Shown here: positions 22,798 to 39,690 of the stretch, one piece after another | Numbering within the stretch: the first letter of the stretch is position 1 | Layout of the letters: every line of letters starts with the position of its first letter | Origin: Candidatus Falkowbacteria bacterium | GTDB lineage: Bacteria > Patescibacteriota > Patescibacteriia > CAIXNZ01 | Length of the DNA: 64,000 nt | Reading direction: 5' to 3' | NCBI GenBank assembly: GCA_963774955.1 | Contig: CAVZGV010000003.1 | Coordinates: forward strand, 192,771-256,770 | Position numbers and translations under genes: made by a program | The notes under the pieces: generated by a model | The model's input: the letters and a program-made list of their open reading frames with translations, nothing else | What the model was told of the DNA's origin: nothing | The model's database searches: none

Positions 22798-23184
22798 ATG
22801 GAAGACAAGGTTATTTATAAAGAGTTAAGCTATAAAATTGTCGGTATTTTATTTGATGTTTATAACGATCTTGGCTATGGGTATAAGGAGAAATATTATG
22901 AGAATGCGATTGAGCGTGAGTTGAGACTGGCAAGGCTCGGATATAAAAAACAAGTTCCCTTTAAATTGGTTTATAAAGAAGAAGTTATAGGCAAATTATT
23001 CGTTGATTTTATAATTGATGATAAGATTGTGCTGGAAATCAAAAAGGGCGATTATTTTAATAAGAGAAATATTGAGCAGGTAAAAGAATATTTAAAAATC
23101 AGCGGTAAAAAATTGGCAATATTGGCTAATTTTACATCTACCGGGGTGAAGTTTTTAAGGGTATTTAATTCCGATTACAAATAA
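22798..23184 (+). CDS. GxxExxY protein (PD-(D/E)XK-like selfish-element family), 128 aa
   Basis: GYGYKEKYYENAIE contains the G-x-x-E-x-x-Y signature. Bracketed by two copies of a palindromic repeat. Confidence 0.65.
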   Translation: MEDKVIYKELSYKIVGILFDVYNDLGYGYKEKYYENAIERELRLARLGYKKQVPFKLVYKEEVIGKLFVDFIIDDKIVLEIKKGDYFNKRNIEQVKEYLKISGKKLAILANFTSTGVKFLRVFNSDYK

Positions 23185-23320
23185 ACCCGTAAATTTACAA
23201 ATCATTTCACAAATAGTACAAATTGAAATATACCCGCAAATTTACAAATTAATTCACAAATCATACAAATTGGATGAAGATATTTGTGAGATTTGTACTA
23301 AGATTTGTGTTTTTTGTGGG
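23184..23320. repeat. About 136-bp palindromic repeat element, copy B (downstream of the GxxExxY gene)
   Basis: Same architecture as copy A. Supplies a spurious ATG that gives track ORF 23274 a 36-aa artefactual N-terminus. Confidence 0.8.
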
Positions 23321-23381
23321 AACCAGCTGCCGGGCAAGCCAAACGTTTTTAAATACACCTTACCAAATAATCAATAAAACA

Positions 23382-23768
23382 ATGAAGAATAGACTGCCAC
23401 AATTAAAGAAAAAATTCCAGGAATTCCTTAATGATGAAGAAGGTAAGATCACCAAAAAGGACATTATTATGCTGGGAATCGGCGTAACTGCTTTGGGTAT
23501 TTTGGCGGAAGAGGCAACTGCTGCTACTCCGGCATGCGGAAGCGGATATACTGCGGCAGGACCGACGGCAGTCGGTCATAATCGTCAGAATCAACTTATT
23601 GCTGGAGGGGCTAGTCATTTTGGGCATAATAATTTTATTCACAATGAAGGAACCCAGGGATCGCATTGTTCACATGGTTCTCATGGTTCACACGGGTCGC
23701 ATGGCAGTCACGGGTCACATGGCAGTCATGGGTCACATGGTCATCATAGTAGTGGCAACTCATGTTAA
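23382..23768 (+). CDS. HxsA-like precursor: N-terminal charged region, one TM helix, C-terminal (His-Gly-Ser)n tail
   Basis: C-terminus is GSHCSHGSHGSHGSHGSHGSHGSHGHHSSGNSC. Start set at ATG 23382, downstream of the repeat element. The DNA encoding the HGS repeats uses varied codons. Confidence 0.7.
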   Translation: MKNRLPQLKKKFQEFLNDEEGKITKKDIIMLGIGVTALGILAEEATAATPACGSGYTAAGPTAVGHNRQNQLIAGGASHFGHNNFIHNEGTQGSHCSHGSHGSHGSHGSHGSHGSHGSHGHHSSGNSC

Positions 23769-23778: not shown

Positions 23779-24642
23779 ATGAATAATAGAATTTTTTTAA
23801 TTTTAATTGCAGTCATTGTCCTCCTATTCATTGGGGTAGGTGTTTTTTGGTTTTTGTATCAAGAACGAACTCCTTTACAGCCTAATTCAAATAAAACTGT
23901 TAATCAAAATATAAATGTAAATACTGACTATTGTTTAGCAAAAATAAAGGCCAATGAAGAGGACGCTTTTTCTATTTCTCGCAGGGAGTTTTATTCGGTT
24001 TTAAATTTTTATACTTTTTGTAAATATAATAATGATAAACAAAATATTATAGATAAATGTAAGAATTATTTCGGGGAGAGAAGAAGTAATTATTGTACGG
24101 ATAAATTCCCTTATTTAGTTATGCTTTATTATCTGAAGCTGGGACAAAAGATTGAATTTGTAAAAACATGCCAAGATTACACTTCGTTATCTCAAAATAA
24201 AAAAAATATAAGTTGTGATGAAATTTGGAATAAGGCCAATGATGCTAATTTAGAATTTTGTGATCAGGTGGATCGTTCCTGCGCCTACTTGGTTACCGAT
24301 TCTGAAAAAACATCATGTGCAAAAATTGTTAATTTGAGCACCCCAGTTGATAATATTCTAGATAATGATTGCCGCAATGAGATACAAATAAGAGCTGCCA
24401 CTTCTGCTCAAGATTGTTTGAGTATAAAGGATGATATTACCAAATTAATATGTTTGAGTGTTTATAGCAAAGACGCCTGTGACAGCGCCTTTGGTTTAAT
24501 AGACGAAAAGTGTCAAATTTTAGAGACAGGTAATTTGAAAAAATTTGAGGATAAATATTCATTAAATAACTGTTGTTATGAAAATGATCCTCAGCAAGGC
24601 GGGGAGGATGTCGGAGCCGTTTTATATGTCCAATTACAATAA
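23779..24642 (+). CDS. Membrane-anchored Cys-rich protein (287 aa, about 22 Cys)
   Basis: N-terminal TM anchor ILILIAVIVLLFIGVGVFWFL, then an extracytoplasmic domain with regularly spaced cysteines. Confidence 0.5.
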   Translation: MNNRIFLILIAVIVLLFIGVGVFWFLYQERTPLQPNSNKTVNQNINVNTDYCLAKIKANEEDAFSISRREFYSVLNFYTFCKYNNDKQNIIDKCKNYFGERRSNYCTDKFPYLVMLYYLKLGQKIEFVKTCQDYTSLSQNKKNISCDEIWNKANDANLEFCDQVDRSCAYLVTDSEKTSCAKIVNLSTPVDNILDNDCRNEIQIRAATSAQDCLSIKDDITKLICLSVYSKDACDSAFGLIDEKCQILETGNLKKFEDKYSLNNCCYENDPQQGGEDVGAVLYVQLQ

Positions 24643-24732: not shown

Positions 24733-25814
24733 ATGATGAAAGAAATTACTTTATATATTTCTTTAAATTCTAAATGCAATTTAGCTTGCCGATATTGCTA
24801 TATAAAAAAAAACCTTAAGGAACAATTAAATATTAGAAAGATTAAACAAAGAATAAGTTATTTTTTTAATAAAAATAACTTTTTGTTTATTAATTTTTGC
24901 GGTGGGGAACCATTAATGTCCTTTACGACAGTTAAAGAAACTTGTAACCTATATAGAAAGGGAGCAGAGAGCGTATGGATTTGGATGTGAATTAAGTATT
25001 ATAACCAATGGAACATTATTAGACGAAGAAAAAGTCTCTTATCTATTAAGCCATGACATTAAAATAATACTTAGTCTGGACGGTATTACGGCATCCTCAG
25101 ATATAAATAGGAAGTTTTTACATTCGAATAAGTCGGTTTCAGGTGAAATAATTAGCAGGCTGGAAAAATTAAATAAAAAAATCGGTTTTCTCCAAAATTC
25201 AAGATTTCAAAGGTTGTTTCACCGAATAATTTGAGGTATCTAAAAAGTGATTTGCTGTATTTTCAGGAATTGGGTATTACTGAATTGAGTTTAGGGATTG
25301 AAAGTTATCGACAATGGTCTGACTCAAGTATTAGATTATTTTGTGAAAAGATAGAGGAACTTTTTACGATTTATTTTGATTTATTAGAAAAACAAAAGGG
25401 AAAATATTTTTAAAGATTAATAATCTTGAACGCTTGATACATAATGAATTTCATTACTATTTTGATTGTGACCAAATTCGCTTAGATTGCGATGGTTCGC
25501 TTTTTTTATGTTTAAGTCATGTTTTCGATAAAAAATTTATGCGGCAGCAGCCCTTGAATCAGTCAGCAGATCTTTCTAAGGCCAAAATGTCATTATTAAA
25601 GAATAAATTACGTCAGCTGATTAATTTTGACGTTAATCTTAAAGAAAAATTGTTTTGTCCCGTCGATTTATTAGTATATTGTCAAATAAAGAAAATTGAT
25701 TTCGTAAGATGTATAAGATGTATGCCAGTTTACATCGATGTTTACGTCGATCAATGTCGGGCTGTATTTAAGGTGTTAAGTAAGAAGAAAAGATTTCGGA
25801 GTTGTATAATTTAA
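24733..25814 (+). pseudogene. Decayed radical SAM/SPASM gene (anSME-like), at least 3 frameshifts
   Basis: CNLACRYC plus GGEPL in frame 1. ITNGTLLDEE...LSLDG in a second frame. KISKVVSPNNLRYLKSDLLYFQELGITELSLG in a third. Cys-containing C-terminal fragment in a fourth. Confidence 0.75.
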
Positions 25815-25836
25815 ATTAAAATTTGGTATTAAATAA

Positions 25837-26923
25837 ATGTCTGATAAAGTTAATTTAATTTATAACGGGGGATATGGTTATCTTTTGGAAAAAGACGGCC
25901 AATTTCTGCCAATGGGTATTTTTCAGTTAATGTCCTATTTGAAGACAATGGGAATTGATCCTCTGTCAAGATTTTAAGCAAAGATCTATTGGCAGATGCT
26001 CACAGCAAAGATGTTATTTATAATTTTTTTGTTGAGAATAATGTCCGCAATTTGGAAAATTGGCAGAATAAACATATCGATAAAAACATCTTGAAAATTG
26101 GTAATCGACCAGTTATCACCAGTAAATGACAGTGCAAAATTTTGGGGCTTCAGTATCAGCTGTCTCGATGATGTTTTGCCAACTCTTTATGCTGTTTTGG
26201 CATTAAAAACTTTAGATAAGACAGCGGTAGTTATCATCGGCGGTGCTTACCTGAAATATTTAAATAAAGAGCTAATTATAGACAACCCAAATTTGATTGA
26301 TTTTTTAGTTGTTGGTGATGGTGAATATGCTCTGACTGAAATATTAATTAACAATGGGGATAAGGATAAATTGATCGCTACTGATAATTTGGTTTTTTAT
26401 AAAGATGGAAAATTGATAATTAATCCCGTTAAATATATTAATTTTAATGACATTAAATTGCCGGATTACGAGATCGTAAAGGCAGATGAAGAGATCTATT
26501 ATAATTTTTCCAGGGGTTGCGGCGGCCAGTGCATGTTTTGCACGTCGAAAGATAAGTTGCAGTTTAAAAATTATACTACAATTTGTAGCGAACTGGATCT
26601 CTTTAATTTCTAAATATAATCCGAGCAGGATTTATTTTATTGATTGCAGTGCCAATAACAACGCCCAGTTATTTATTAAAATTTTGGAATATTTACACGG
26701 GCGAACGGGAGATTTTGAGGCAATATTTTGGGTTGATTTTTTCAATTTTCCGGATAGTTTAATCCAGGCAATTAATGATTATACCACGGATAAAAAAATA
26801 AACTTAAAGTTCGGTCTAGAAAGCGGTGATAAAAAAATGCGTGATTTTTTGAATAAACCACGATTTACTAATGATGCAGCAATTGATATTGTGAAGAAAC
26901 TTAAGAACAGGTTAATAATTTAA
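25837..26923 (+). pseudogene. Decayed B12-binding-domain radical SAM gene (multiple frameshifts and stops)
   Basis: Cobalamin-binding-like VVIIGGAYLKYL...DFLVVGDGE. RGCGGQCMFC (CX3CX2C). Continues in another frame (SRIYFIDC...KFGLESG). The N-terminal part is also broken. Confidence 0.7.
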
Positions 26924-27300
26924 AAATAAATCTTAAATATTATTGTCAGTATTCCCTATGAAGATAAATTTAGTTTCTTAAAAACCTTAAAATTAATTTT
27001 ATATTTGAAGGATTATTGTTACCGGGTACCCATTACGATTTTTCATCTGACTCCTGAGAGTGCACTGTTCTGAAGAATCCAGATAAGTATAAGATTAGGT
27101 TACGTGACCGTTCAGTAAATAAATATAATTACTTTTTTTGTTACGATGAAATTGACGGCTTTAAAATGGGAGGATATTGAGCGAAGAAATTATAAGTATT
27201 TTGAGCATATTGTTTCTTATTTGAATAAGGCTAAAATTAGTTGGTGAAAATATATGGATGATATTTTAAATGTTCACTTTAAAGCGTCTATTGGAATTTA

Positions 27301-28030
27301 TTGATATTAAGAAATTTACAGCTTAAGGATTTTTTTATCGGAGCAGAAATGACGTTGGTTAAGCTTTCAGACAATAGTTTGGGGACAGCTGCGAATTTCG
27401 ATGTTCAAATCGATACCGATAAACATTTAAAGTTTTCTGCTATAAGGGAGAGTGATCATATTAGGAAATTAATAAACAAAGATCCTTTATTATTAAAATA
27501 TTTGCAGAATCTTGACTGCAGTTTTAAACGGTCATTAAAATTAGCCATAGTTTCAGCGTTGTCTCAGCCTTTATTGAATAAAAGTGAATTAAGGAGACTT
27601 GGTCTTGAATTTTTTTAGAGTTAAAAAGAGCAGTTCATGGCAACATAGACTTGTCCCGTTACTTAAAGATAAAAACGAAGCTGTTTTAATAGGTTATGGC
27701 GGGGGCTTACATACATTATTAAAGTCAAAGATTTTAAATTTGTATATTTCTGATTTTATGTTTAAAAATAGGGTGTTTTTAATGCAGTCAATTCGAGAAT
27801 TGGCTAGACTCAAGAAATTGTATAATTTTATGGGAAAGATTAAATTATCAAATGGTTTACAGAATGAAGCGATTCTAAAGAAGGCCAATCTTACCTTAAT
27901 TAGCGGTTCTGCCCTAGCTATTAATACGATGGAAGATTTGCTTAAAAATGCTCGAAGATGTGCTAAACGGTCATTGTCCAGGGGCCTAGTGCCAGTATCT
28001 ACCCAGCCGAATTATTTTCCAGAGGAGTAA
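27301..28030 (+). CDS. Hypothetical protein split into two overlapping ORFs at a T7 homopolymer (27301-27618 and 27599-28030)
   Basis: The frame change coincides with gaattttttt at about 27608-27617. No family recognised with confidence. Confidence 0.35.
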
Positions 28031-28137: not shown

Positions 28138-28997
28138 ATGCATTATTCATTAGATTTAAATTACAATTGCAATAATGATTGCCTTTTCTGTTTTAATAAA
28201 TATGATAAAAACAAGTCGTTTGATATTAAGCAGGTAAAAAAAGAAATTGATTGGGCGTCTAAAAATCAGTTTGATATTCTCGATTTTTATGGCGGGGAAC
28301 CGCTATTATATAAAGATGATTTGTTGGAAATTCTAAAGTATGCACATGCAATAAAGGGTTGAAATCCGGAATCGCTACAAATGCCACTTTTTTAGATGAT
28401 AAAATTGTTAAAATTTTCAATGAATTAGGGGTGGTTAATTGTAGAACAAGTATGCACGGCCATAATAAGGTATTGCATGACATGGTGACTCAAAGGAAAG
28501 GTAGCTTTGAAAAGACCTCTCGAGGAATTAATTCTTTGATTAACTATTTTAACGGGGAGATAATTATAAATATAGTCATTACCAAATTAAATTATAAATA
28601 TCTACCAGACATTGTTCTACATATATGTAAACTTGATCCTGGTAAGAAGGCGGCTATTAAGTTTTCCAATTTGATTTATAATCATAATAATGATGTTTAT
28701 AGAAAGATTGGCCTGTCTTTATCAGCCACCCAGCCGGTTGTGTATAAAGTAATCAAAAATATAGTTAAAGATAGAAAGTTTTATATTGAGAAATATCCTT
28801 ATTGTTTTTTAAAACCATTCTCTAAAAATTTTATAATAGAAAAAGATCTTGGCAGGGAAATTATATTTTGGCATAATGATTGCGCTGTCTGCAAATTCAA
28901 GAATAAGTCTTGTGTCGGATTAAATATCAATTATGTCAATTATATCCAGCCAGATATAGGTGAAATTAAAAAATTGAATAATTTTAAATATGAATAA
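28138..28997 (+). CDS. Short twitch/SPASM-type radical SAM enzyme, paralog 1, interrupted by a -1 frameshift at about 28355-28362
   Basis: CNNDCLFC, GGEPLL, TNATFLDD, NIVITKLNYKYL and a C-terminal CAVCKFKNKSCVG cluster. The break lies in an aaaggg run (ORFs 28138-28362 and 28359-28997). Confidence 0.65.
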
Positions 28998-30378
28998 GCT
29001 GAGAAAGTTATTAGGTCGCGAGCAGATCTCGAATGAAAAAAAACAATATATTAAGATAAACAATTACTGTAATAATAATTGTATTTTTTGCCTTGATTCT
29101 GCCAATCAGGAAAAGGCTCAGCGGATCAAAAAAACTTTCATATTTAAACAAATCAAAGATGGAAGGGCCGGGGGGGCTAATAAATTAATACTAAGCGGCG
29201 GCGAAGCTACAATTGATCCCTACTTCCTTGAATATGTTAAATTTGCCAAAACGAACGGTTATCATAAAATACAGGTTATTTCCAATGGCCGGATGTTTGC
29301 GTACGGTAAATTTGCTAAGCAGGCAATAGCGAATGGTTTGAATGAGATAACGATATCAATTCATGGGCATAATCAGAAGTTGTACGAAAAATTGACTAAT
29401 ATACCCGGATCATTTAAACAATTGTTAGCGGCATTAAATAATTTAAAACAATTTCCCGGGTTGATAATAAATATTGATATAGTGATCAATAAATTAAATT
29501 ATAAATATATTTATGAGATTATTAAATTTTATAGTAAAAATTGTGGTATTTTTGAATATGATTTACTTAATTTAACACCTGCCGGCCGCGCTTTAATTAA
29601 TAAAAAGATATTATTTATTAATTTGAAACTAGCTTTGAAGTATTTAAAGCCTGTTTTTAATCTGACGAAAAGGGATAGTCGGTTTTTTATATGGACTAAT
29701 AGGTTGCCTCCTAAATATTTAGAAGGGTATGAGTATTTAATCCAAGACCCTCATAAATTAATGGATGAGGTTTCGGGCCGTTATCAATCATTAAACAGTT
29801 TTTTGACCTTAGGGACTAAAATGAGTTGTCAGGATGATCTAAACTGCTCTTGGTGTTATTTGGATGATTTCTGTAAAAAGCTCAGGGACACTAAACAACT
29901 AAATAATTTTGAGTTTTTCCCCATAAAATCCATTAATGATGTTAGAAATGTTAGTGAACGCAAGTATTTTGTTGAGGTTGACAGGAAGAATTACAAGGAC
30001 ATCTTAGAAAATATTGAAGAATATAAAAAATATAATGTTTATTTTAAATTAAGAAATTTTAGCACTGTAAAAGAACTTGACCAGAAGGCTTTGCCTCTAA
30101 GTTTATTCAAAGAATATTTTGCGATGGATAAAGATATTAAATTTTTAGACTTTCCATTATGTTTGGTTAATAAACAGGCAAAAGTAGCGCAATTTTTGAA
30201 TTTGTCAAGAAATGCCGCTGATTTAGATTTAAAGCAATTTACCATGAATTATATAAGGGATTTATATTATATAAAAGCTTTAAAATGCGATCATTGTAGA
30301 TTTAATAAAAAATGTTCTGGCTGGCATATTAATTATGTGCGCTATTACGGGTTTAAAATTTTTAACCCAGTCATATGA
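28990..30378 (+). CDS. Radical SAM enzyme, paralog 2, with an about 170-aa C-terminal extension (462 aa)
   Basis: CNNNCIFC, SGGEATIDP, ISNGRMF, IDIVINKLNYKYIYEI. Terminal CDHCRFNKKCSGWH. Start overlaps the upstream stop (ATGAATAA). Confidence 0.75.
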   Translation: MNKLRKLLGREQISNEKKQYIKINNYCNNNCIFCLDSANQEKAQRIKKTFIFKQIKDGRAGGANKLILSGGEATIDPYFLEYVKFAKTNGYHKIQVISNGRMFAYGKFAKQAIANGLNEITISIHGHNQKLYEKLTNIPGSFKQLLAALNNLKQFPGLIINIDIVINKLNYKYIYEIIKFYSKNCGIFEYDLLNLTPAGRALINKKILFINLKLALKYLKPVFNLTKRDSRFFIWTNRLPPKYLEGYEYLIQDPHKLMDEVSGRYQSLNSFLTLGTKMSCQDDLNCSWCYLDDFCKKLRDTKQLNNFEFFPIKSINDVRNVSERKYFVEVDRKNYKDILENIEEYKKYNVYFKLRNFSTVKELDQKALPLSLFKEYFAMDKDIKFLDFPLCLVNKQAKVAQFLNLSRNAADLDLKQFTMNYIRDLYYIKALKCDHCRFNKKCSGWHINYVRYYGFKIFNPVI

Positions 30379-31736
30379 GTAAAATTGATTTTAATCAGCG
30401 GTTAAAATTTTTTAGAGATATTACTTATCGGTATAATTTAATATTCCCGACCGATTATTTATATCTTTCACCTAAAAAGGAATGGGGATTAGAGCAGATG
30501 ATGAATTTATGGCGATTTAATTTGAGAAATGTTAATAACCCATATGTTTCGCTTTATTTACATATCCCTTTTTGTCTCGAAAGAAGGTGCTCTTATTGTA
30601 TAAATTTATCTTCGGTATTGGAGTCCGGCTCCCAGCTCGAGCAATATTTGGATTATCTGAAAAAAACGATGTTAAACTATAGGAAAATATTTCCGACTAC
30701 AAAATTCAATACATTATATATAGGCGGAGGTACCCCCTCGATATTATCGCCAAAACAGTTGGATGATTTTTTAAAAACCATTAAGATTAATTTTAAATTT
30801 GAAAGTTCTGGCATGAAAACTATCGAGATGTCACCTGCTACTGCAAGTTATGAAAAAATAGATATTTGTAAAAGGCAAGGTATTAATCGCATAAGTATGG
30901 GGATTCAATCTTTGAACTGCAAGATTCTAGAATCAGTTAATAGATTCAATACTTTAGCCTATAATGAGTTACAGGATCTTTGTCGGTATGTTAATAGGAA
31001 GAAATTTGAAGATTTTAATTTGGATTTAATAATTGGCTTGCCTGGCGAAAATAATAAAAGTTTTTTAAATAACCTGACGCAATTATTAAAGTTAAATATT
31101 CCATCAATTACTGTTTATAAATATGTACATAAATATTTTGAGTCCGAAAAAAATACGCCAAAGTATTACGAAGAGCAATATTTAATCAAGTATAAAGATA
31201 TTATTAAAAATATAGGAGCTATATTGAAAAAGTATCATTATATTGAAGAAACGTCCGGGGCTGGAATTAATAATCTATTTCGTTTCGTAAAGAAAAACCA
31301 TAGCAAAAAACAGGATTATTTTTTGCAATGGAACTCACAATTAAATAATTCTGTTTTAGGTATCGGGAAAGGCTCTACCAGTCTTATACAAAATAAAGTC
31401 TTTGCCAATGAAGATTTTAACGTATCAGTAAATAACCTAGTATCAAGCAATGTTAAATATTCAGGTCACATATTTAATAAAGATGACCAAATTCGCAATT
31501 ATACAATTATGGAACTCTGGCGTAATCGGGCAATGGATTTTTCAGAATTCAAGAGGTTATTCGGGCTAGATTTTTACAGCTACTTTAAGGGGGAGCTAGA
31601 CTATTTGAGAATTCAAAATAAAGTAATAATTACCGATAAATACGTAGAGATTAAATTTAATGATATTTTGGATTTTGCAATTAATATAAAATTATTTTTT
31701 AATTTTTCTTATCTTAAAACTAACTATCAAACATAA
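30375..31736 (+). CDS. HemN/HemW-like radical SAM enzyme with a non-canonical CX4CX2C motif, paralog A (453 aa)
   Basis: LHIPFCLERRCSYC, LYIGGGTPS, INRISMGIQS, DLIIGLPGE. ATGA overlap with the upstream gene. Confidence 0.75.
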   Translation: MSKIDFNQRLKFFRDITYRYNLIFPTDYLYLSPKKEWGLEQMMNLWRFNLRNVNNPYVSLYLHIPFCLERRCSYCINLSSVLESGSQLEQYLDYLKKTMLNYRKIFPTTKFNTLYIGGGTPSILSPKQLDDFLKTIKINFKFESSGMKTIEMSPATASYEKIDICKRQGINRISMGIQSLNCKILESVNRFNTLAYNELQDLCRYVNRKKFEDFNLDLIIGLPGENNKSFLNNLTQLLKLNIPSITVYKYVHKYFESEKNTPKYYEEQYLIKYKDIIKNIGAILKKYHYIEETSGAGINNLFRFVKKNHSKKQDYFLQWNSQLNNSVLGIGKGSTSLIQNKVFANEDFNVSVNNLVSSNVKYSGHIFNKDDQIRNYTIMELWRNRAMDFSEFKRLFGLDFYSYFKGELDYLRIQNKVIITDKYVEIKFNDILDFAINIKLFFNFSYLKTNYQT

Positions 31737-31738
31737 TT

Positions 31739-32674
31739 ATGGCGAATTTGGGTTACATCCAATTGAATAGAACCTGTAATCAGCAGTGCCTGTTTTGCTC
31801 CAATCCGGAGAATGGGAACGTTTTATCATATTCAAAAGCTAGGTTTTATATTGATGATTTTATGAAAAACCGAGTTGACGGAATTATTTTTACCGGGGGT
31901 GAACCAACCTTAAACAAAAATTTAATAAGGCTTATAAGGTATTGTAAACAAAAAAACTTAGAATCCAGGATAATAACAAATGGACAACTTACTGCTGATT
32001 ACGATTTTATGCGAGAATTGAAGTTGTCTGGATTGAATTTGATTCATGTTTCCATCCATTCAGTAAAACCCCCAATACAAAATTATTTGAGCCAAAATTC
32101 TAATTCTTTTAGGAATATAATAGGAACTTTGCAAAACGCCAGAAAGCTCGGTGTGGAGGTTAATATTAATACTGTTATAAACAGATTTAATGCCAAAAAT
32201 TTGCATGAAAATATGCGTTTTTTTATCGTTAAATTCCCTGAAATTAAGCACTTTGTTTTTAATAATTTAGATCCTAAGATGAATCGGGTTGAGAAAAATA
32301 CCACTTTAATCCCTCGATTAGGGGATTTTAAAGATTCATTGTTGAAAGCTCTGACATTATTAAGCAAGAATGGAAAGACTTTCCGCGTTGAACGCGTCCC
32401 TTTATGTTATATGACGGAATTCGCAGAGTATTCAACTGAAACCAGGAAGATTATTAAGAATGAGGAACGTAGGATCTTATTTTTGGATGATCGACCTGAT
32501 AATTATAGTAAACAAGATTATTTCTTTTATGAAAAAGCAAAACAATGTAAAAAATGCAGCCTGAATGAAATATGTGCCGGATTATACGCTATGGATACAC
32601 ATTTTAGTAGTAAAGAATTGGAGCCCCAAGCAATTAATAAGAATATAATTATTAAAAGGATATTAAATGGCTAA
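31739..32674 (+). CDS. Short twitch/SPASM-type radical SAM enzyme, paralog 3 (311 aa)
   Basis: CNQQCLFC, FTGGEPTL, ITNGQL, NTVINRFNAKNL, C-terminal CKKCSLNEICAG. Confidence 0.8.
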   Translation: MANLGYIQLNRTCNQQCLFCSNPENGNVLSYSKARFYIDDFMKNRVDGIIFTGGEPTLNKNLIRLIRYCKQKNLESRIITNGQLTADYDFMRELKLSGLNLIHVSIHSVKPPIQNYLSQNSNSFRNIIGTLQNARKLGVEVNINTVINRFNAKNLHENMRFFIVKFPEIKHFVFNNLDPKMNRVEKNTTLIPRLGDFKDSLLKALTLLSKNGKTFRVERVPLCYMTEFAEYSTETRKIIKNEERRILFLDDRPDNYSKQDYFFYEKAKQCKKCSLNEICAGLYAMDTHFSSKELEPQAINKNIIIKRILNG

Positions 32675-33548
32675 AAGGATTGAAATATATGTAGGTTTTA
32701 AATGCAATAATAATTGTATTTTTTGCGTTGAATACTTTAGACGACAGAAGTTTAATGACTTGAAAGTATTACAAACTAATACTGAAATCAATGAACAGCT
32801 AAATAAATATCGTGAAGAAGGATATAGCCATTTAAATATATTGGGTGGAGAACCTTTCTTGGAGCCAAGTTTTTATAAAGTATTATCAAAAGCTAAGGGC
32901 TTAGGCTTCATTACCGCAGTTACAACTAATGGAAGTTTATTGTCAGATGAAAATATTGCCGTTAAAAATTTACCCTTAATAGATGATCTAATCTTATCTA
33001 TTCATGGTCATAATGAAGAAATAATCTCGAGACAGAGTCAGAATAAAAATTTATATGTCAATTTACAGGCAGCTTTTTTAAATATTAAAAAATATTTTAG
33101 AGGTCGAATTCTTAAAACCAATACTGTAATTAATAATTTAAATTATAAATATCTCTTAGATATTGTAAAATTTATTCAGAGGGCGGGAATCTCAGAAATT
33201 AGTTTAACCTATATGTCGATTGATGATCATAATAAAGAATTCTTGGTAAGTTTGGGTAGACTGCAGCCATATTTGGAAAAAGTAATGGAATATTGCAGCA
33301 ATAATGACTTGAGAATCAGGTTCGCTGATATTCCTTTATGTTTTTTGGGACAATACCCCCATCTAGATAATAGTTTATATTATGACAAACGACAGAAATA
33401 TGATGTGGATGGTAAGCTGATCGAACATTGTAGGCAAAAAACAAAAACAGAAAAATGTTCCGGCTGTATGTATGAAGGTATTTGCGAAGGGTTGGATCTT
33501 AGTTATTATAAAATATTCGGCGATTCAGAATTAATGCCAATTAGTTAA
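32667..33548 (+). CDS. Short twitch/SPASM-type radical SAM enzyme, paralog 4 (293 aa)
   Basis: CNNNCIFC, LGGEPFL, TTNGSLL, NTVINNLNYKYLLDIV, C-terminal CSGCMYEGICEG. Confidence 0.8.
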   Translation: MAKRIEIYVGFKCNNNCIFCVEYFRRQKFNDLKVLQTNTEINEQLNKYREEGYSHLNILGGEPFLEPSFYKVLSKAKGLGFITAVTTNGSLLSDENIAVKNLPLIDDLILSIHGHNEEIISRQSQNKNLYVNLQAAFLNIKKYFRGRILKTNTVINNLNYKYLLDIVKFIQRAGISEISLTYMSIDDHNKEFLVSLGRLQPYLEKVMEYCSNNDLRIRFADIPLCFLGQYPHLDNSLYYDKRQKYDVDGKLIEHCRQKTKTEKCSGCMYEGICEGLDLSYYKIFGDSELMPIS

Positions 33549-33554
33549 TTATAT

Positions 33555-34490
33555 ATGCATAATATTGAAATTAACATCGGTAATGCCTGTAATAATAAAT
33601 GCAGATTTTGTATGATAGAATATGAAGATAAAAGATGCTTCATTGCTTTTAATTTGATAAAAAAAGAGGTAATTAAGGCCAGGCGTCAGGCGTATGATTC
33701 GATTGGGTTTTTAGGCGGTGAATTTACTTTACATCCGGATTTGCTGAAAATAGTTAAATTATGTAAAATTTTAGGATATAAAACTATACATATAATTAGT
33801 AACGGCAGAAGATTTGCTGACTCTGAATTGTTGAGTGACCTGATAAAAAATGGTGTAAATAGATTTTCTGTTTCAGTTCATAGCCATGATCAGAAAGTTG
33901 ATGATTATTTGACTCAAAGTCGCGGAGGATTCAAACAAAAACTTCAGGGAATTAAGAATCTAATAAAATTTAGAAAAACCGGAAAAATCAGAAATTCTCT
34001 GTCAATAAATATAGTTATTAATAATTTGAATTACAAAGAAATAGTTAAGACTTTAAACTATTTTCACGGTCTGGGCATTGAAGATTTTAGGTTGAATTTT
34101 ATTTGGCTGCACGGACGTGCCCAGAGATACTCGGAACTTTACCTTAAATTTAGTGATTTTGTGCCATATATTAAGGATATTATTTCAGCCGCAAAGGAAC
34201 ATAAATATAATTTTTCTTTTGAGGGTATTCCGGCCTGTATTATAAATAGTGATGAGGCACTTAATTATTTAGGCGAGCTAAAAGATCAAGCTACTCAGGT
34301 AGTTGCCTATAATAATCCGAAACAGCTGAGGGAAAGCTTTAACTGGCAAAGCCGCAAAGCTAATGAGTTTAAAATTAAAAATGATAACTGCCAATTGTGC
34401 CATTGGAATAGTATCTGCGATGGTATCTGGCGAGATTATATAACAATTTATGGTTGGGACGAATTCCAGCCGAAGGAAAAAAACAATTAA
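33555..34490 (+). CDS. Short twitch/SPASM-type radical SAM enzyme, paralog 5 (311 aa)
   Basis: CNNKCRFC, LGGEFTL, ISNGRRF, NIVINNLNYKEIV, C-terminal CQLCHWNSICDG. Ends YGWDEFQP. Confidence 0.8.
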   Translation: MHNIEINIGNACNNKCRFCMIEYEDKRCFIAFNLIKKEVIKARRQAYDSIGFLGGEFTLHPDLLKIVKLCKILGYKTIHIISNGRRFADSELLSDLIKNGVNRFSVSVHSHDQKVDDYLTQSRGGFKQKLQGIKNLIKFRKTGKIRNSLSINIVINNLNYKEIVKTLNYFHGLGIEDFRLNFIWLHGRAQRYSELYLKFSDFVPYIKDIISAAKEHKYNFSFEGIPACIINSDEALNYLGELKDQATQVVAYNNPKQLRESFNWQSRKANEFKIKNDNCQLCHWNSICDGIWRDYITIYGWDEFQPKEKNN

Positions 34491-34509
34491 TTTTTTTATA
34501 TATACGCGG

Positions 34510-35844
34510 ATGTTAACTATTAAGAGAAAAATCGAAGAATTCAATAGGCTCTTTCAGAACAATCAGTGTTGGGATTTGGATCTTCTTAAAAATTATCTGA
34601 TTAGGGCAGAAGTAAGGTTCAGCGCACAGGATGTAAGAAAAATGTGGGGTAGGGGGCTCAAAACATTAAGCAAACAGCCTGATAAGAACTTGAATATGTA
34701 TATCAGTATGCCTTTTTGTTTAGATAATAAGTGCGCCTATTGCCGTCATCAGTCTTTGATTGCCAGCAGTTCTGTTATTGATTTATATATAATTTATTTA
34801 ATCAATTCTTTGAAATATTATAAGGATATTTTTAAAAATTTTGTTTTCAATAATTTGTATATAGGGGGCGGGACACCTAGTATTCTAACAAACAAACAAT
34901 TACAGATAATTTTAAATGAAATTTTCAATGATTATGATTTCGATCCTTCTGGGGAAAAAACTTTTGAATGCAATCCCAATACAATTAATTTGGAAAAATT
35001 AATGATTGTCAAGAACTTCGGCTTTAATAGAATAAGCATCGGCGTGCAATCTTTAGATGAAAAGGTGTTGTCGTCGGCTAAAAGGAACAACCAATCATAT
35101 AACGATGTTCAAAACGCAATTGTTAATGCGCAAACGTGTAATTTCCCAGTAATAAATGTAGATTTGATGCTCGGGCTTGCAAACCAAACATTGGAATCTC
35201 TGGTTAAAACCTGCTTGCAGATTATAAAATTTAGACCCGATAATATGTTTATTTATAAGTATAAGCCGCAAGAAGGTCATTATGGCAATTATATTAAGCA
35301 GTCGCAGGATAAATATTTTAAAAGGTTAAATAATTTTTGCCAAAGATTTTCCGTGGTATTGAAGTCTGATAAAAAAGTCAATTCAGTTTATTTTGTTACG
35401 GAGAATGATAATTTCTTTAGATTACGTTTGAAAACCGGTCCCCGTATAAAAATTAGCACCCCTTATGTTTTATATGGTGATAGGCCTTTTAATTATGTAT
35501 TTGGGGTAGGACAGTTTGCTATTTCAAAAATTTATTCAATATTTCAGGGGGAAGAGTTGTCTAAAAATTTCTTTTTTAAACCTCGGCTAAAAAATATAAG
35601 AGGTTCGTTTGTATCTCAAACTGATGAAATGAAAAGTTATATTTTGAACTCTCTTGACCGTTATGATTCAGTAATAAATAAAACTGAATTTGAAAAAAAT
35701 TTTGGTCAAGACATATCCCTGTCTTTCAAAGGGGAGCTTGAATATTTCCAAAATAATAATTTGTTAGTTCTGGATAATGAAAGGGTAATTTTTAAATTTA
35801 AAACACCCAAAGAGAAGTTTTTAGCTGCCTTTCTTTTTATTTAA
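34510..35844 (+). CDS. HemN/HemW-like radical SAM enzyme with CX4CX2C, paralog B (about 444 aa)
   Basis: SMPFCLDNKCAYC, LYIGGGTPSIL, FNRISIGVQS, DLMLGLANQT. Start set at ATG 34510, after the upstream stop at 34490. Confidence 0.75.
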   Translation: MLTIKRKIEEFNRLFQNNQCWDLDLLKNYLIRAEVRFSAQDVRKMWGRGLKTLSKQPDKNLNMYISMPFCLDNKCAYCRHQSLIASSSVIDLYIIYLINSLKYYKDIFKNFVFNNLYIGGGTPSILTNKQLQIILNEIFNDYDFDPSGEKTFECNPNTINLEKLMIVKNFGFNRISIGVQSLDEKVLSSAKRNNQSYNDVQNAIVNAQTCNFPVINVDLMLGLANQTLESLVKTCLQIIKFRPDNMFIYKYKPQEGHYGNYIKQSQDKYFKRLNNFCQRFSVVLKSDKKVNSVYFVTENDNFFRLRLKTGPRIKISTPYVLYGDRPFNYVFGVGQFAISKIYSIFQGEELSKNFFFKPRLKNIRGSFVSQTDEMKSYILNSLDRYDSVINKTEFEKNFGQDISLSFKGELEYFQNNNLLVLDNERVIFKFKTPKEKFLAAFLFI

Positions 35845-35849
35845 ATTTT

Positions 35850-35990
35850 ATGTCTTTAGCTAGAAATATGCCCAATGATGTTATTAAAATTGATGATCAA
35901 TTCGAAATGGCAAAATCTATGGGGAATACTTTATTGCAGTATGCTAGACGTTTTTTGAATATCGATTTAATTTATTATAAAATTATATAA
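35850..35990 (+). CDS. Small ORF (46 aa, MSLARNMPNDVIKIDDQFEMAKSMGNTLLQYARRFLNIDLIYYKII) immediately upstream of a radical SAM gene; a speculative precursor or accessory peptide
   Basis: Fills the only sizeable gap (about 150 bp) inside the radical SAM array. Its stop lies 2 nt before the next ATG. No homology evidence. Confidence 0.2.
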   Translation: MSLARNMPNDVIKIDDQFEMAKSMGNTLLQYARRFLNIDLIYYKII

Positions 35991-35992
35991 CT

Positions 35993-37807
35993 ATGGATAG
36001 GATTGATTTGAAAATTTGCTTTCAATGCAATAATCTTTGTGAATTTTGTGTGCAGGGAGATAAGAGGGAGCGTCTTGCTAATAAAAGTCTTGAAGAAATT
36101 AAAAAAGCGCTAAGGGAGGCGAGGCAGGAAAATATCGAAGGTGTTGTTTTTACAGGTGGCGAACCTACTGTCCATCCCGATATTTTAAAGGTAGTGGAGT
36201 ATGCCCAGAAAGCTGGATTTAAAAGTATCCAGTTGCAAACTAATGGACGTATGTTCTCGTATTTAGATTTTTGTAAAAAAATAATTTCAGCAGGAGCGAG
36301 TGAATTTTCGCCAGCATTGCATAGTTCTGTGCCAGAAATTCACGATAAATTAACAAATAGTCCGGGGGCCTGGCAGCAGGTAGTAAAGGGGATTAGAAAT
36401 TTGAAAAGTTTAAATCAATATGTCCTTACTAATACCGTTATTACCTCTTTGAATTATAAGGATTTTCCGGAATTGGCTAAATTATTTGTCAGATTGAATG
36501 TTGATCAGTTTCAGTTTGCTTATGTTCATATAATTGGCACCGCCTTTAAAAATAAGGAATGGCTGATTCCCCGAAAAAGCGAAGTGATGCCTTATGTTAG
36601 GAAGGGTTTAGATATCGGTATCTTCGCCGGTAAAAAAGTAATGACCGAGGCGATACCTTATTGTTTTATGTCTGGTTATGAAGATTATATTGCCGAAAAA
36701 AATATTCCGGAAACAAAAGTCGTGGCTGAAAATACAATTGATGATTTTAATTATTTTCGGAAAAACGTTGGGAAATTGAAGTCCGCTACCTGTAAGATTT
36801 GCGGTTATTATAATATTTGCGAGGGGCCCTGGAAAGAGTACCCTGAAATTTTTGGCTGGGATGAATTTAAGCCGGTAATAAAATTACCGCCTCATTTTGA
36901 AAAACTGGAAAATTATGACAAGAAATTAATTCAGGTAGTTGGACAGGCTTATAATCTTGGGGAGATAGTTGCTGTCTATAAATATGTCAAACGCAGCATT
37001 AATAATGCTCATTTGTTTGTGTTTCAAGCTAAAATAGTGATAGCAAAATTATCAAAAACAAAGACGCCAGAAAAGATAAATGCGGAACAAAATGTGCTGA
37101 GTATTTTTCTGAAAAAAGGTTTACTTTTCCCGGCGATGTTAAAAACTGTTAAAGGTGATTTTTATCTAAAATACAAACAAAGTTATATCCGTTTGTACGA
37201 GTATGTTCAGGGTTCAAACAATGTTCATTATTTTAATTATCTGGATAAGATTTTGAATTATTTTATTTTTTGCGTACAAAGCAAAGATAAATTCAATAAG
37301 TTTTATAATCGAGAAGCAGTTTTATTTAAACTAGACAAGAAAATTGCTAATGCTTTAAAATTAACTAAAAAATTTAATCACTCGGATAATAAATACTTAG
37401 TGGGCCTGCTGGGCGATTCTGAGAATATTTTAAATAATATAAGGAGTTCTGATGTAATTATACCATTGCACTTTCTGGAATTAGTTTTGAACGAAAAGGG
37501 GCTATATTTTTTGGAATCAGAACACTTGATCGAAAATTTTTTTCCTTCTTCTTACGTCCTGGCGAGATATATATTAAAAGTATTAACTCAAGAAAATCAA
37601 ATTTTAAATATTGATGAGCTTGTGAGAATAGTTTTCACGAAAACCAATTTAGCCCAAGAGAAAAAAACTGCCGTGAATCTTCTCTTGACAATTGATTTAT
37701 TGCGTAGGATTTATAATTATAAAAAATATAATAAGGATACGAGAAATAAATATAAGAAATATTATCGAGATTTAATCATTGGGTTTAATGTTAAATTTAG
37801 TCAGTAA
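35993..37807 (+). CDS. Radical SAM enzyme, paralog 6, with an about 300-aa C-terminal extension of unknown function (604 aa)
   Basis: CNNLCEFC, FTGGEPTV, QTNGRMF, NTVITSLNYKDF, CKICGYYNICEGPW, FGWDEFKP. The C-terminal half has no recognisable domain. Confidence 0.75.
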   Translation: MDRIDLKICFQCNNLCEFCVQGDKRERLANKSLEEIKKALREARQENIEGVVFTGGEPTVHPDILKVVEYAQKAGFKSIQLQTNGRMFSYLDFCKKIISAGASEFSPALHSSVPEIHDKLTNSPGAWQQVVKGIRNLKSLNQYVLTNTVITSLNYKDFPELAKLFVRLNVDQFQFAYVHIIGTAFKNKEWLIPRKSEVMPYVRKGLDIGIFAGKKVMTEAIPYCFMSGYEDYIAEKNIPETKVVAENTIDDFNYFRKNVGKLKSATCKICGYYNICEGPWKEYPEIFGWDEFKPVIKLPPHFEKLENYDKKLIQVVGQAYNLGEIVAVYKYVKRSINNAHLFVFQAKIVIAKLSKTKTPEKINAEQNVLSIFLKKGLLFPAMLKTVKGDFYLKYKQSYIRLYEYVQGSNNVHYFNYLDKILNYFIFCVQSKDKFNKFYNREAVLFKLDKKIANALKLTKKFNHSDNKYLVGLLGDSENILNNIRSSDVIIPLHFLELVLNEKGLYFLESEHLIENFFPSSYVLARYILKVLTQENQILNIDELVRIVFTKTNLAQEKKTAVNLLLTIDLLRRIYNYKKYNKDTRNKYKKYYRDLIIGFNVKFSQ

Positions 37808-39284
37808 ATTTATTGTCGTTATTGTTTTGGCCATCGGATCCATTGTTTGTTTTGAAGATTTTAAATTTGGCAAAATTCGTAACAAGTGGATTAAGCTTGG
37901 GGCTCTTTTGGGCTTTTTGTTTTATTTTGTCTGCGGGATAATAACTATTTTATATAATTTAAATATTGTTAATTTTAGTTTTTACTTGGCAGATTATTAT
38001 CTGTTAGTTTTTTATAATACTCTAATTGCATTTATTTTGGGATTTATCCTCTGGTACTTTAAACTCTGGGCCGGTGGGGATGCTAAATTATTTACTCTTT
38101 ATGCATTTTTAATCCCATTGGAATTTTACGGTAACTGGTATTTTAAATATTGGCCGGCTTTGACTTTATTAATAAATATTATCCTGCCGATTTTTGTTTA
38201 TCTGTTGATTAAATTTTTACTTTATCCGATTAAACTGGGCATTAATTATTTGAAAAATCCGCGCTTGCTGGCCGAGTATTGCGGCAAATTTAAACAAGGA
38301 ACTGAATTTGATAAAACTAAAATAAAGACTTATATTAATGTTGCCTTAAGCTTTATCGTGATTTTAATATTTTTTCAGATTTTGAGGTCGCGGTTGGGTG
38401 ATTTGCTGACTCCATATCTTGGCCAGCTGCTCGTAGGCTTTTATTTTTTGATCGGTTTTGTGGTTTTTCAGCCCCTGCGAAAATTATTGCAAAAAAAAGA
38501 GTTATTGGTTTCTGTTTTGATCGCAGTATATTTTATTGCCGGCGCAATTTTTTTCAGGGAGACTGTTTTTGTTGATTTCCATAAAATATTTGCGCTGCAG
38601 TTTATTTTAATATTGTCATATTATTATATTTTTAAATACGGCCAGACATTGGGAAGATTTTTGTATAATTCAGCCGAGGTTAAAATGGTTCCTGCGGCAG
38701 AAATCGTAGCCGGAATGTATATCAATAAGGATTATATTCGCCAAATTTTAGGTTCCCGCTATAATTTTGAAGCATCAAAAAAGGAAATTTCTGCAAACTT
38801 AAATCCCGAGGAGGTAGCGCAATTGGAGAATATTTTAAAGTCCCGACAAAATGCAGCCGATAAATATTCTCGGTTACTCTCATCTTTGAGCCGTTTTAGC
38901 TTATCTTCAGTGCCGACTTTAATCCAACAGCTGTGGCAATTAAAACAGGAGAAAAAAATAGTGGCAAGTTTATTGGAAAAGATTAACGCCAAGCTGGATC
39001 AGGAACAAAAGGTTAAACTCCACAATTTATTAAATAAGCTTGATGAGAACCAAGTGTTTTTAAAATCCCTTAAAGGCAAATTAACCGTTGAACAGGCGAA
39101 TGATTTAAAAATCATAATTGCCAAGCGCAATCAGGAGGTTGTAAGTCAGGGCTTGGCACCTGTAGATACCATTATTCTGCATAAAACTTTTTCCTTTGCG
39201 CCCTGGATGCTTTTGGGGGTGATTATTACTTTGGTAACCAGAAGTTCATTGATCCATCTAATTTATCAATTATTTGGCAGGTAG
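37788..39284 (+). CDS. Polytopic membrane protein with an N-terminal A24 prepilin-peptidase-like domain (TadV/CpaA/FlaK family) and a long C-terminal coiled-coil region
   Basis: Two catalytic-Asp motifs characteristic of A24 aspartic peptidases: EDFKFGKIRN (D-x5-I-[P/R]-N) and WAGGDAKLFTLYAF (GGD-[AV]-KL). About 8 TM helices. Overlaps the preceding radical SAM gene by about 20 nt. Confidence 0.55.
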   Translation: MLNLVSKFIVVIVLAIGSIVCFEDFKFGKIRNKWIKLGALLGFLFYFVCGIITILYNLNIVNFSFYLADYYLLVFYNTLIAFILGFILWYFKLWAGGDAKLFTLYAFLIPLEFYGNWYFKYWPALTLLINIILPIFVYLLIKFLLYPIKLGINYLKNPRLLAEYCGKFKQGTEFDKTKIKTYINVALSFIVILIFFQILRSRLGDLLTPYLGQLLVGFYFLIGFVVFQPLRKLLQKKELLVSVLIAVYFIAGAIFFRETVFVDFHKIFALQFILILSYYYIFKYGQTLGRFLYNSAEVKMVPAAEIVAGMYINKDYIRQILGSRYNFEASKKEISANLNPEEVAQLENILKSRQNAADKYSRLLSSLSRFSLSSVPTLIQQLWQLKQEKKIVASLLEKINAKLDQEQKVKLHNLLNKLDENQVFLKSLKGKLTVEQANDLKIIIAKRNQEVVSQGLAPVDTIILHKTFSFAPWMLLGVIITLVTRSSLIHLIYQLFGR

Positions 39285-39665: not shown

Positions 39666-39690
39666 TACCCCCGCATGCGGGGTTTTTTGA
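39666..39690 (+). terminator. Rho-independent terminator
   Basis: ccccgcatgcgggg palindrome plus T6. Confidence 0.8.

Follow-up and report, generated by a model that had tools for sequence, protein, structure and literature searches.

A tandem array of radical SAM genes in a Candidatus Falkowbacteria genome is probably the tailoring half of an enlarged HXS system

A stretch of 64,000 nucleotides from a Candidatus Falkowbacteria bacterium (assembly GCA_963774955.1, contig CAVZGV010000003.1, positions 192,771–256,770 of the forward strand), hereafter the window, carries a tandem array of radical S-adenosylmethionine (SAM) genes that was analyzed computationally; positions are those of the window. 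The array spans 28138–37807 and comprises eight co-oriented, tightly packed open reading frames (ORFs) on the + strand with Pfam Radical_SAM matches (E 2e-9 to 2e-25), among which six encode short MoaA/HxsC-like paralogs (C1–C6) and two encode HemN-like proteins (N1 and N2). A gene for a putative A24-type polytopic membrane peptidase that ends at 39284 closes the array. The core of an HXS (His-Xaa-Ser) system, including a precursor protein with repeated His-Gly-Ser units, (HGS)n, is located upstream on the same strand, and the whole unit of core, array and peptidase occupies about 19.9–39.3 kb. The array is probably the tailoring-enzyme half of an enlarged HXS system of HxsA4/HxsC4 type that matures this precursor. 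The initial annotation of the region had recognized eight co-oriented radical SAM genes; the set is real, but the first gene is frameshifted and three more decayed genes lie upstream (24733–28030).

The gene junctions in the block measure −4, −8, −4, +2, −8, +6, +19 (or −41), +5, +2 and −20/−29 nt. No convincing terminator was detected inside the array, i.e., before 39669, and the sole convincing terminator-like hairpin (39669–39682) follows a small ORF and precedes cysS. With junctions from −41 to +19 nt and no internal terminator, the set of radical SAM enzymes has the look of a single operon-like unit, in agreement with the overlapping and abutting genes described originally. A promoter scan was uninformative as it returned 119 hits compared with 100.9 ± 9.8 in shuffled sequence, which is not above expectation. 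At 39–40% GC, both flanks exceed the HXS core (34.7%), the peptidase gene (33.8%), and the array with the decayed genes (~30.8%).

The six HxsC-like proteins were compared with their counterparts in related loci (designated by L numbers), principally with those of L001, a locus of Parcubacteria type with which C1–C6 are collinear in one-to-one correspondence. C1 (28138–28997) is represented by ORFs in two different frames, 28138–28362 and 28359–28997, and is therefore one gene with a single frameshift near 28357; both halves match the Radical_SAM and HxsC models, and the repaired protein is 55% identical to c286 of L001 and 58% identical to a gene product of L009. C2 (28990–30378, 462 aa) belongs to the h381 type, is 40% identical over 444 aa to h381 of L001, and scores 126.7 bits with HxsC4 and 90.1 bits with HxsC. 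C3 (31739–32674, 311 aa) is of a core type and scores 97.3 bits with HxsC and 63.6 bits with HxsC4; its orthologs share 67–69% identity in close relatives (68% in L001) and 41–57% in other phyla. C4 (32667–33548, 293 aa; HxsC4 83.2 bits) has orthologs at 51–52% identity in L001, L002, and L009, the value for L001 being 51%. C5 (33555–34490, 311 aa) is also of a core type, aligns end-to-end with HxsC4 at 149.8 bits, is 61% identical to its L001 ortholog, and is encoded identically in an independent assembly. C6 (35993–37807) consists of an HxsC-like core-type enzyme in residues 1–300, equivalent to c295 of L001 with 73% identity, which is followed by a 304-aa domain; it scores 137.4 bits with HxsC4 and 103.3 bits with HxsC.

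Long C-terminal domains had been ascribed to two of these proteins. The assignment stands for the 604-aa C6 protein, but the extension in the 462-aa C2 protein proved on alignment to be a duplicate of its C-terminal Cys module instead of an unrelated domain. The C6 domain (36893–37807) matched no Pfam family at E values up to 1 and yielded zero homologs in a word-index search. An exhaustive HMMER search of 1.84 billion representative sequences recovered three homologs, two of which are stand-alone proteins (313 and 338 aa) and one of which is fused (648 aa). A single-sequence AlphaFold2 model of the domain was all-helical with a pLDDT (predicted local distance difference test) score of 43.5, which is too low for a fold search. 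An AlphaFold2 model of C5 attained a pLDDT of 94.2, and its nearest folds, at 13–20% identity, were GDGT-MAS, SuiB, viperin, SkfB, BlsE, MoaA, NifB, and CteB. These neighbors make up the generic SPASM/twitch clan, and the model thus supports a twitch/SPASM-like description at the fold level only.

Alignment of the six paralogs revealed the shared motifs CNxxCxFC, GGE(P), xNG, VIN.LNYK, and a C-terminal CxxCx5C, as listed initially, and additionally a conserved PxC. The four Cys residues of PxC and CxxCx5C are invariant across 29 homologs of C5 and could hold an auxiliary cluster in each HxsC-like enzyme. The paralogs matched the Pfam Radical_SAM model above threshold; none matched the Pfam SPASM model. 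The best NCBIfam match of each full-length short paralog was HxsC (TIGR03977) or HxsC4 (NF038332), and the proteins share 19–26% identity with canonical HxsC across the radical SAM core and the PxC/CxxCx5C region. MoaA was the second-best match of C3, above HxsC4, and the 74-aa fragment of C1 matched viperin first. For the short array enzymes of L001 that were scanned as well, HxsC or HxsC4 likewise ranked first or second. A housekeeping identity for the paralogs, coupled with scattered single copies elsewhere, had been put forward as the observation that would overturn the original description. The scores with the MoaA, NirJ/Ahb, viperin, and PqqE models were all far below the cutoffs (40–83 bits compared to 231–325 bits in the case of MoaA), and such an identity was rejected. 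Relatives retain the genes as arrays instead of scattered single copies, and the original description is thus not overturned.

The two other array genes had been judged to be HemN-like and were placed likewise by the profile scans. N1 (30375–31736, 453 aa) scores 170.8 bits with HemN, 160 with STM4012, and 135 with HemZ, and is 51% identical to a gene product of L009. The ORF of N2 (34510–35844) opens at 34450, but the likely start is at 34510, and in the independent assembly the next gene begins 20 nt past the C5 stop codon; N2 scores 149 bits with STM4012, 138.8 with HemZ, and 121 with HemN. The two proteins are 31% identical to each other. The equivalog cutoffs were missed by N1 for HemN (325 bits) and by N2 for HemZ (321 bits) and HemW (118 compared to 205 bits), and by these scores N1 and N2 are members of the HemN-like superfamily that fall outside its curated equivalogs. 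The cluster-binding Cys residues are spaced CX4CX2C in N1, N2, and the L009 ortholog of N1, whereas 35 of 38 HemN-like proteins associated with clusters at other loci have the canonical CX3CX2C. An ORF of 799 aa at 8579–10978 of L024 (Elusimicrobiota, JBDRPD010000074.1) fuses a HemN-like radical SAM enzyme (residues ~47–414) with an HxsC4-like one (~469–678), which argues that both enzyme types serve the same pathway.

The gene at the distal end of the array (37779–39284) starts at TTG 37779 or ATG 37788 and encodes a putative A24-type (GxGD aspartyl) polytopic membrane peptidase of ~500 aa (501 codons), with a coiled-coil-like region at the C-terminus. The protein itself matched PF01478 weakly (19.6–20.9 bits compared to a gathering threshold of 26.5), but nine of 12 of its homologs match this family with a best E value of 7.6e-9, and D25 and G98-D99, within the motifs xxDxxxxKIxN and (A/G)GDAKLF, are invariant in 34 homologs. 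The A24-peptidase-like assignment made at the outset is thereby upheld. The motifs contain what we take to be the two catalytic aspartates of the GxGD-type prepilin and preflagellin peptidases. A profile of the family gave no meaningful match to any solved structure when compared with the sequences in the Protein Data Bank (PDB).

Apart from an HxsA-like peptide, the HXS core at 19927–23768 was overlooked in the initial annotation, in which the locus could not be mapped to a described system. HxsD (19927–20400, 157 aa) scores 63.1 bits with NCBIfam TIGR03976, above the cutoff of 50, and orthologs with 72–85% identity are found in the same position in L001, L002, and L010. A small HxsD-like protein is encoded at 20342–20611 and scores 64.1 bits with the HxsD_rel model NF038315 (cutoff 41) over residues 24–81; its true start is probably downstream of 20400. 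HxsB, a SPASM-type radical SAM maturase of 500 aa (21133–22635), matches TIGR03978 along its full length at 521.6 bits, well above the cutoff of 370, and shares 36% identity across 486 aa with the HxsB annotated on an Aeromonas salmonicida plasmid, where the canonical hxsD-hxsB-hxsC-hxsA operon is found. The locus is thus of HXS type.

The HxsA4-type precursor (23382–23768) is a protein of 128 aa when translated from Met37 of its ORF. A conserved basic leader (LPxLKKxxxxFLxxEEGKITKK) is followed in order by a hydrophobic helix, a variable Cys/His linker, eight consecutive H-x-S units (one HCS and then seven HGS), and the tail HHSSGNSC. Alignment of 15 precursors from different phyla showed that P6, L16, and E19 are invariant, that K9, K10, F15, G21, and K25 are near-invariant, and that the leader conforms to the consensus LPxLKKxxxxFLxSEEGKITKK ahead of the hydrophobic helix and variable linker. 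The number of H-x-S units, mostly HGS, ranges from five to >60 across phyla, and the proteins often end in HG(Q/A/S)W or Cys. Judged from sequence, this combination of a conserved leader and a variable core is typical of ribosomally synthesized and post-translationally modified peptides (RiPPs). The precursor scores 37.3 bits with the HxsA3 leader model (cutoff 65), and the homologous precursor of L024 passes the HxsA4 model (59.5 compared to 55 bits). A motif scan identified ORFs with HxS repeats in at least 25 loci. Exactly one such precursor ORF is present in the window; a second was sought and none was found.

The distribution of the system was assessed with 79 loci from a scan of species-representative genomes, and with 83 non-redundant loci for counts. 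Forty-two query proteins were mapped on all loci by tblastn, radical SAM genes were counted within ±10 kb, and many contigs are truncated. The 79 loci derive from Parcubacteria-type groups, Gracilibacteria, bins labelled as Saccharibacteria, Elusimicrobiota, Myxococcota, and Omnitrophota, along with one bin labelled Aenigmatarchaeota. A search with C5 retrieved 69 homologs, nearly all from metagenome bins of the candidate phyla radiation (CPR)/Patescibacteria, and the closest relatives of the exact protein were in metagenome-assembled genomes of Parcubacteria and Buchananbacteria. Among the 83 loci, 41 possess at least five radical SAM genes, 19 at least eight, and six at least ten; the largest count is 12, and one locus has 14 according to Pfam. 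The A24-like gene, which without exception is the distal member of its array, is present in 34 loci; 25 loci have HxsB within reach and 22 have HxsD. The gene set that recurs in these 80+ loci consists of HxsD, HxsB, an HxsA4-type precursor, radical SAM enzymes of the C3, C5, and C6 types, and the A24-like peptidase. The C3 type occurs in 37 loci with a ratio of best to second-best bit score of 3.1, and the C2/h381 type in 36 loci with a ratio of 2.26; by these values both are sharply defined subfamilies, with 41–57% identity across phyla.

Gene order is also conserved. L001, L002, L006, and L009–L011 share the arrangement HxsD-HxsB-precursor-(Cys-rich)-array-A24-CysRS, where CysRS is cysteinyl-tRNA synthetase, and the smallest complete version, in L045, L017, and L019, reads HxsD-HxsB-precursor-C6-C3-C5-A24. 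The flanks are constant in relatives, with the HXS core on the left and the A24-like gene and then cysS on the right, whereas the accessory content differs: HemN-like genes in the window and L009; c285, a glycosyltransferase-like gene, a radical SAM-HD fusion, and a PEP-utilizer-like gene in L001; and an intact B12-binding radical SAM gene and a TP_methylase gene in L006. The eight genes had been viewed as an eightfold expansion. The paralogs are 24–38% identical pairwise, have collinear orthologs in L001, and include types (C3, C2/h381, C5, and C6) that recur across phyla, and therefore the array is an ancient cassette and not a recent expansion. Orthologs share 51–85% identity, which is comparable to the 49–75% of the neighboring CysRS. 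This level of conservation, together with the synteny, is not the usual picture of a mobile defense island.

Fusions of a radical SAM enzyme with an HD phosphohydrolase (889 aa) and PEP-utilizer/PPDK_N-like proteins were observed within the arrays of L001 (13907–17465) and L003 (12403–14125). Their presence hints that these relatives perform a phosphoryl-transfer or ATP-dependent step for which the window has no counterpart.

What the genes are, how consistently they occur together and in the same order, how the precursor is built, and which active-site motifs the peptidase carries are the observations from which we infer a substrate, an order of steps, a chemistry, a cleavage site, and a biological role for the array. 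The substrate would be the 128-aa precursor, the leader of which would be engaged by HxsB, HxsD, and the HxsD-like protein. Each of the diverged HxsC-like enzymes would alter the repeated HGS units by a radical reaction of its own, with C2/h381, C3, C5, and C6 as putative core enzyme types and C1 and C4 as putative accessory ones. Class C radical SAM methyltransferases are a precedent for the addition of one-carbon units by HemN-like enzymes, and N1 and N2 may act in this way. GxGD-type prepilin and preflagellin peptidases remove a charged leader that is joined to a hydrophobic helix. The leader and helix of the precursor resemble the substrate layout of these peptidases, and a cleavage site is predicted accordingly in this region, such that the A24-type peptidase would strip the leader at the membrane and the product would either stay in the cell envelope as an anchored protein or leave it.

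The HXS system of E. coli blocks phage DNA entry (Li et al., Nat Commun 2026, PMC13128918). There, HxsA is processed at its N-terminus and acquires a modification of +8 Da on its last HxS unit only if HxsB, HxsC, and HxsD are all present; HxsD is bound by HxsC, and the mature protein has its site of action outside the cytoplasm (PMC13128918). By analogy, the product encoded in the window might form an envelope-located barrier to phage DNA entry, but this role is proposed tentatively.

A number of points weigh against assignment of the array to an HXS pathway. None of the six paralogs reaches the cutoff of HxsC (best score 103.3 compared to 267.9 bits) or of HxsC4 (149.8 compared to 500 bits), and all six are devoid of the ~105-aa N-terminal domain of canonical HxsC. 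The precursor scores below the HxsA4 cutoff (41.6 compared to 55 bits), and no peptidoglycan-binding domain was found in it. Decayed genes occupy 3.5 kb between the HXS core and the array, and this stretch together with the frameshift in C1 implies that part of the pathway has been lost in this genome. As 99.7% of canonical HXS systems are found in Pseudomonadota, a transfer of function to CPR bacteria is a long extrapolation. Moreover, co-occurrence does not establish the peptide as the substrate of each array enzyme, and genes for B12-binding radical SAM enzymes, TP_methylase, PEP-utilizer, HD, and nitrogenase-like proteins in related loci could point to a small-molecule product.

The likenesses and departures can be set out system by system. 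In common with canonical HXS, the window has HxsB and HxsD orthologs above family cutoffs, a precursor with tandem His-Xaa-Ser units, and radical SAM partners with an HxsC-type core and C-terminal Cys motifs; N-terminal processing and export of the precursor are predicted by analogy. In contrast, the single HxsC is replaced by four to ten diverged HxsC-like enzymes without the N-terminal domain, and HemN-like, B12-binding, and SPASM radical SAM enzymes as well as a dedicated A24-type peptidase are added. Canonical HxsA combines a signal of Sec type with five basic HxS units and, at the C-terminus, a peptidoglycan-binding domain, whereas the precursors here have a conserved cytoplasmic-type leader with a hydrophobic helix and (HGS)n without such a domain. 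Instead of Pseudomonadota, members of Patescibacteria, Elusimicrobiota, Myxococcota, and Omnitrophota serve as hosts. The arrangement hxsD-hxsB-hxsC-hxsA, which is kept in 99.6% of described systems (PMC13128918), is replaced in the window by HxsD, the HxsD-like protein, a four-helix-bundle protein, HxsB, a GxxExxY protein, the precursor, the Cys-rich protein, pseudogenes, and the HxsC-like array. No HxsC that passes TIGR03977 was found next to hxsB, where the GxxExxY gene is situated instead.

Two genes in this order interrupt the core. The four-helix-bundle protein of the 23S rRNA intervening sequence type (20686–21033; TIGR02436 84.8 bits, PF05635 62.3 bits) is an accessory or inserted gene that occupies the same place in L001, L002, and L010. 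The GxxExxY/PD-(D/E)XK_3 gene (22798–23184; TIGR04256 100.9 bits) lies between hxsB and the precursor gene in a region (22650–23272) that has a pair of 47-bp direct repeats at either border, at 22650–22740 and 23179–23272. The repeat occurs nowhere else in the window, and its four matches compare with an expectation of 0.01. L046 has the gene at this site but L001 and L002 do not, a pattern suggestive of a small mobile insertion, and an insertion between hxsB and the precursor gene is the likely origin of this arrangement.

The closest counterpart to the locus among family models is NCBIfam type 4 (HxsA4 NF038313, HxsC4 NF038332, HxsD_rel NF038315). The HxsD_rel cutoff is passed, and HxsC4 is the top or second match for C2, C4, C5, and C6, but the window proteins score 83–150 bits against the HxsC4 cutoff of 500 and the precursor is also below its cutoff. 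No publication on the HxsA4/HxsC4 variant was found in the searchable literature. The locus, which is unusual for its size, is a new, enlarged HXS variant that is partly captured by these unpublished models.

Multi-enzyme pathways for RiPPs and peptide-derived cofactors (sactipeptides/ranthipeptides, SCIFF, pyrroloquinoline quinone, mycofactocin) resemble the window in their leader-bearing precursor, SPASM radical SAM enzyme, and leader peptidase. HxsD could act as PqqD or MftB do, and the solved folds nearest to C5 include the maturases SuiB, SkfB, and CteB. However, those pathways use one to three radical SAM enzymes, and neither a RiPP recognition element (RRE) nor a PqqD domain was detected at the locus. 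We know of no characterized precedent for a core that consists solely of His/Gly/Ser repeats. The A24-like protein shares with type IV prepilin and preflagellin peptidases an N-terminal region of ~140 residues that matches PF01478 and the two invariant Asp motifs, and the precursor, with its charged leader, conserved leader Gly, and hydrophobic helix, is laid out like a prepilin. It differs from these peptidases in its length of ~500 aa, extra transmembrane segments, and coiled-coil tail, and in being encoded in a radical SAM cluster rather than with pilus genes; the conserved Gly is located 6–8 residues before the helix rather than directly adjoining it as in prepilins.

The size of the radical SAM set was originally contrasted with known cassettes of one to three such enzymes. 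However, Meheust et al. (2020) described suites of up to 13 radical SAM genes in Elusimicrobia, Myxococcales, and two Gracilibacteria, located beside a NifH/D/K paralog of group VI. Tetrapyrrole reduction was proposed for these group VI nitrogenase-like suites in that study, and a later review (Chem Rev 2026, section 7) lists the function as still unknown; on the basis of gene context, both propose the synthesis of a tetrapyrrole-based cofactor. The suites share with the present family C3, C5, C6, h381, HemN-like, and B12-fused radical SAM types, similarly high copy numbers, and the same phyla, but the window is without NifH/D/K-like genes.

In line with that proposal, the array might make or remodel a small-molecule cofactor of tetrapyrrole-like nature, the adjacent HXS genes being a separate system. 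Two HemN-like genes and the remnants of a B12-binding radical SAM gene in the window, TP_methylase genes in L006, L028, L031, and L040, and NifH/NifDK-like genes in 16 related loci are all compatible with this explanation, which nevertheless is improbable. A search for NifH/D/K-like genes gave no match in the window and none in close relatives. Enzymes with peptides or protein-bound His as substrates are known in both the HemN-like and the TP_methylase families, namely class C radical SAM methyltransferases and diphthine synthase, and, to our knowledge, CPR genomes generally lack tetrapyrrole synthesis. Furthermore, a co-oriented cluster in L024 unites HxsB (512 bits, cutoff 370), an HxsA4 precursor, the HemN-like::HxsC4-like fusion, C3 and C6 radical SAM types, an A24-like gene, and NifD/K-like genes; L020 (Elusimicrobiota) is similar, with HxsD-like ORFs on the opposite strand. 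The HxsB, HxsD, HxS-precursor, and A24 genes evident in L020 and L024 are missing from the published account of group VI clusters. The text of Meheust et al. (2020) does not mention peptides, SPASM, or peptidases, and thus the tetrapyrrole idea was formulated without regard to these genes.

A peptide substrate accordingly is a serious alternative for the group VI orphan systems, an argument built on two loci outside the window and on co-occurrence at the family level. A broader proposition is that the radical SAM suites of Patescibacteria, Elusimicrobiota, and Myxococcota, including the group VI-linked ones, constitute one ribosomal-peptide pathway family with a heavily modified His-derived product. 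As many as a dozen radical enzymes would then rebuild each His-Xaa-Ser unit of an HxsA4-type precursor, and the product, possibly excised, could serve as a cofactor, metal ligand, or envelope polymer. This unification is rather unlikely, but if true it would mean that the "unknown cofactor" ascribed to tetrapyrrole chemistry is peptide-derived and that the window contains a nitrogenase-free version of the system.

Between the core and the array lie a Cys-rich gene and three decayed genes. The Cys-rich protein (23779–24642, 287 aa, 16 Cys) has an N-terminal hydrophobic anchor, matched no family in profile scans, and is a lineage-specific accessory with homologs in L001, L002, L009, and L046. 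The PapB/SPASM-type radical SAM pseudogene that follows (24733–25811; PapB 51 bits on the first fragment) contains at least three frameshifts, such that the intact L001 homolog aligned by tblastn with four consecutive segments in frames 2, 3, 2, and 1. Fragments of a B12-binding radical SAM gene (25837–27100, the end being approximate) have broken frames and stops, with BchE/B12-radical SAM matches on the ORF 26098–26613, whereas the homolog of L006 is intact with 865 aa. The DUF4213/DUF364 gene (27301–28030) is split by a frameshift into fragments that match PF13938 and PF04016, and the pieces that are in different frames here are in one frame in L009. The breaks are confined to four adjacent genes, namely these three and C1. 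An alternative genetic code was rejected as an explanation for the broken ORFs at 24.7–28.4 kb as the lesions are frame changes and not only in-frame UGA codons.

The Cys-rich protein was one of three candidate substrates named initially within the window. The HGS-repeat peptide is the candidate that is linked to the array, whereas the Cys-rich protein is lineage-restricted and a 46-aa ORF at 35850 is unconserved. The latter was rejected as a precursor: it had no match in any of 86 loci and has neither a leader nor an HxS motif. That the array enzymes act on the Cys-rich protein, or on a protein outside the window, for example by forming thioether or other Cys cross-links, is very improbable. 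The gene does begin just 10 nt after the precursor gene, its product is rich in Cys, and the decayed gene that comes next is of a family known for Cys thioether links. Nevertheless, the protein is conserved at only 24–34% identity and in the closest relatives only, it is absent from minimal loci, and L045, L017, L021, and L024 lack it yet retain C3, C5, and C6 types and the precursor; moreover, the SPASM enzyme that might act on it is encoded here by a pseudogene. Least probable of all is that the cluster is a decaying relic whose product is no longer made in this genome, as the four consecutive disrupted genes at the 5′ side of the array, the atypical CX4CX2C in both HemN-like genes, and an array GC content nine points below the flanks might suggest, for HxsD, HxsB, the precursor, C2–C6, N1, N2, and the A24-like protein are intact with all cluster-binding Cys residues and catalytic motifs, the orthologs are as well conserved as CysRS, an independent assembly encodes an identical C5, and the disrupted genes are accessory types that are also lacking or lost elsewhere, L001 keeping only an 85-aa remnant of the B12 gene.

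The antiphage role of HXS has been known only since 2026, and the radical SAM chemistry that adds +8 Da to one HxS unit is unsolved (PMC13128918). If the array is indeed the tailoring half of an enlarged HXS system, bacteria with very small genomes devote ~20 kb to a far richer version of it, in which three to >10 diverged HxsC-like enzymes, HemN-like enzymes, and a dedicated GxGD peptidase accompany a (HGS)n precursor. The natural series from the seven-gene minimal set to loci with 12–14 radical SAM genes provides a route to the action of each enzyme type on a simple repeat substrate, and a testable alternative is offered for the group VI nitrogenase-like function.

Immediately 5′ of hxsD, a 723-aa protein with a Laminin_G_3/ConA-like lectin domain is encoded at 17721–19892. 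Further downstream, a 394-bp unit is repeated 3.2 times with 99% identity at 51105–52357. Each unit starts with a tRNA-Gln-like sequence (51122, 51516, and 51910; Rfam tRNA 29.1 bits) that has an interruption of ~40 nt in the T-arm region, and also includes, as read by eye, a sequence that resembles the C-terminal half of an ORF of GIY-YIG type. An intact tRNA-Gln(CTG) at 52303–52374 closes the last copy. The repeats may have arisen in the genome, by duplication of a tRNA-targeting insertion, or as an artefact during assembly.

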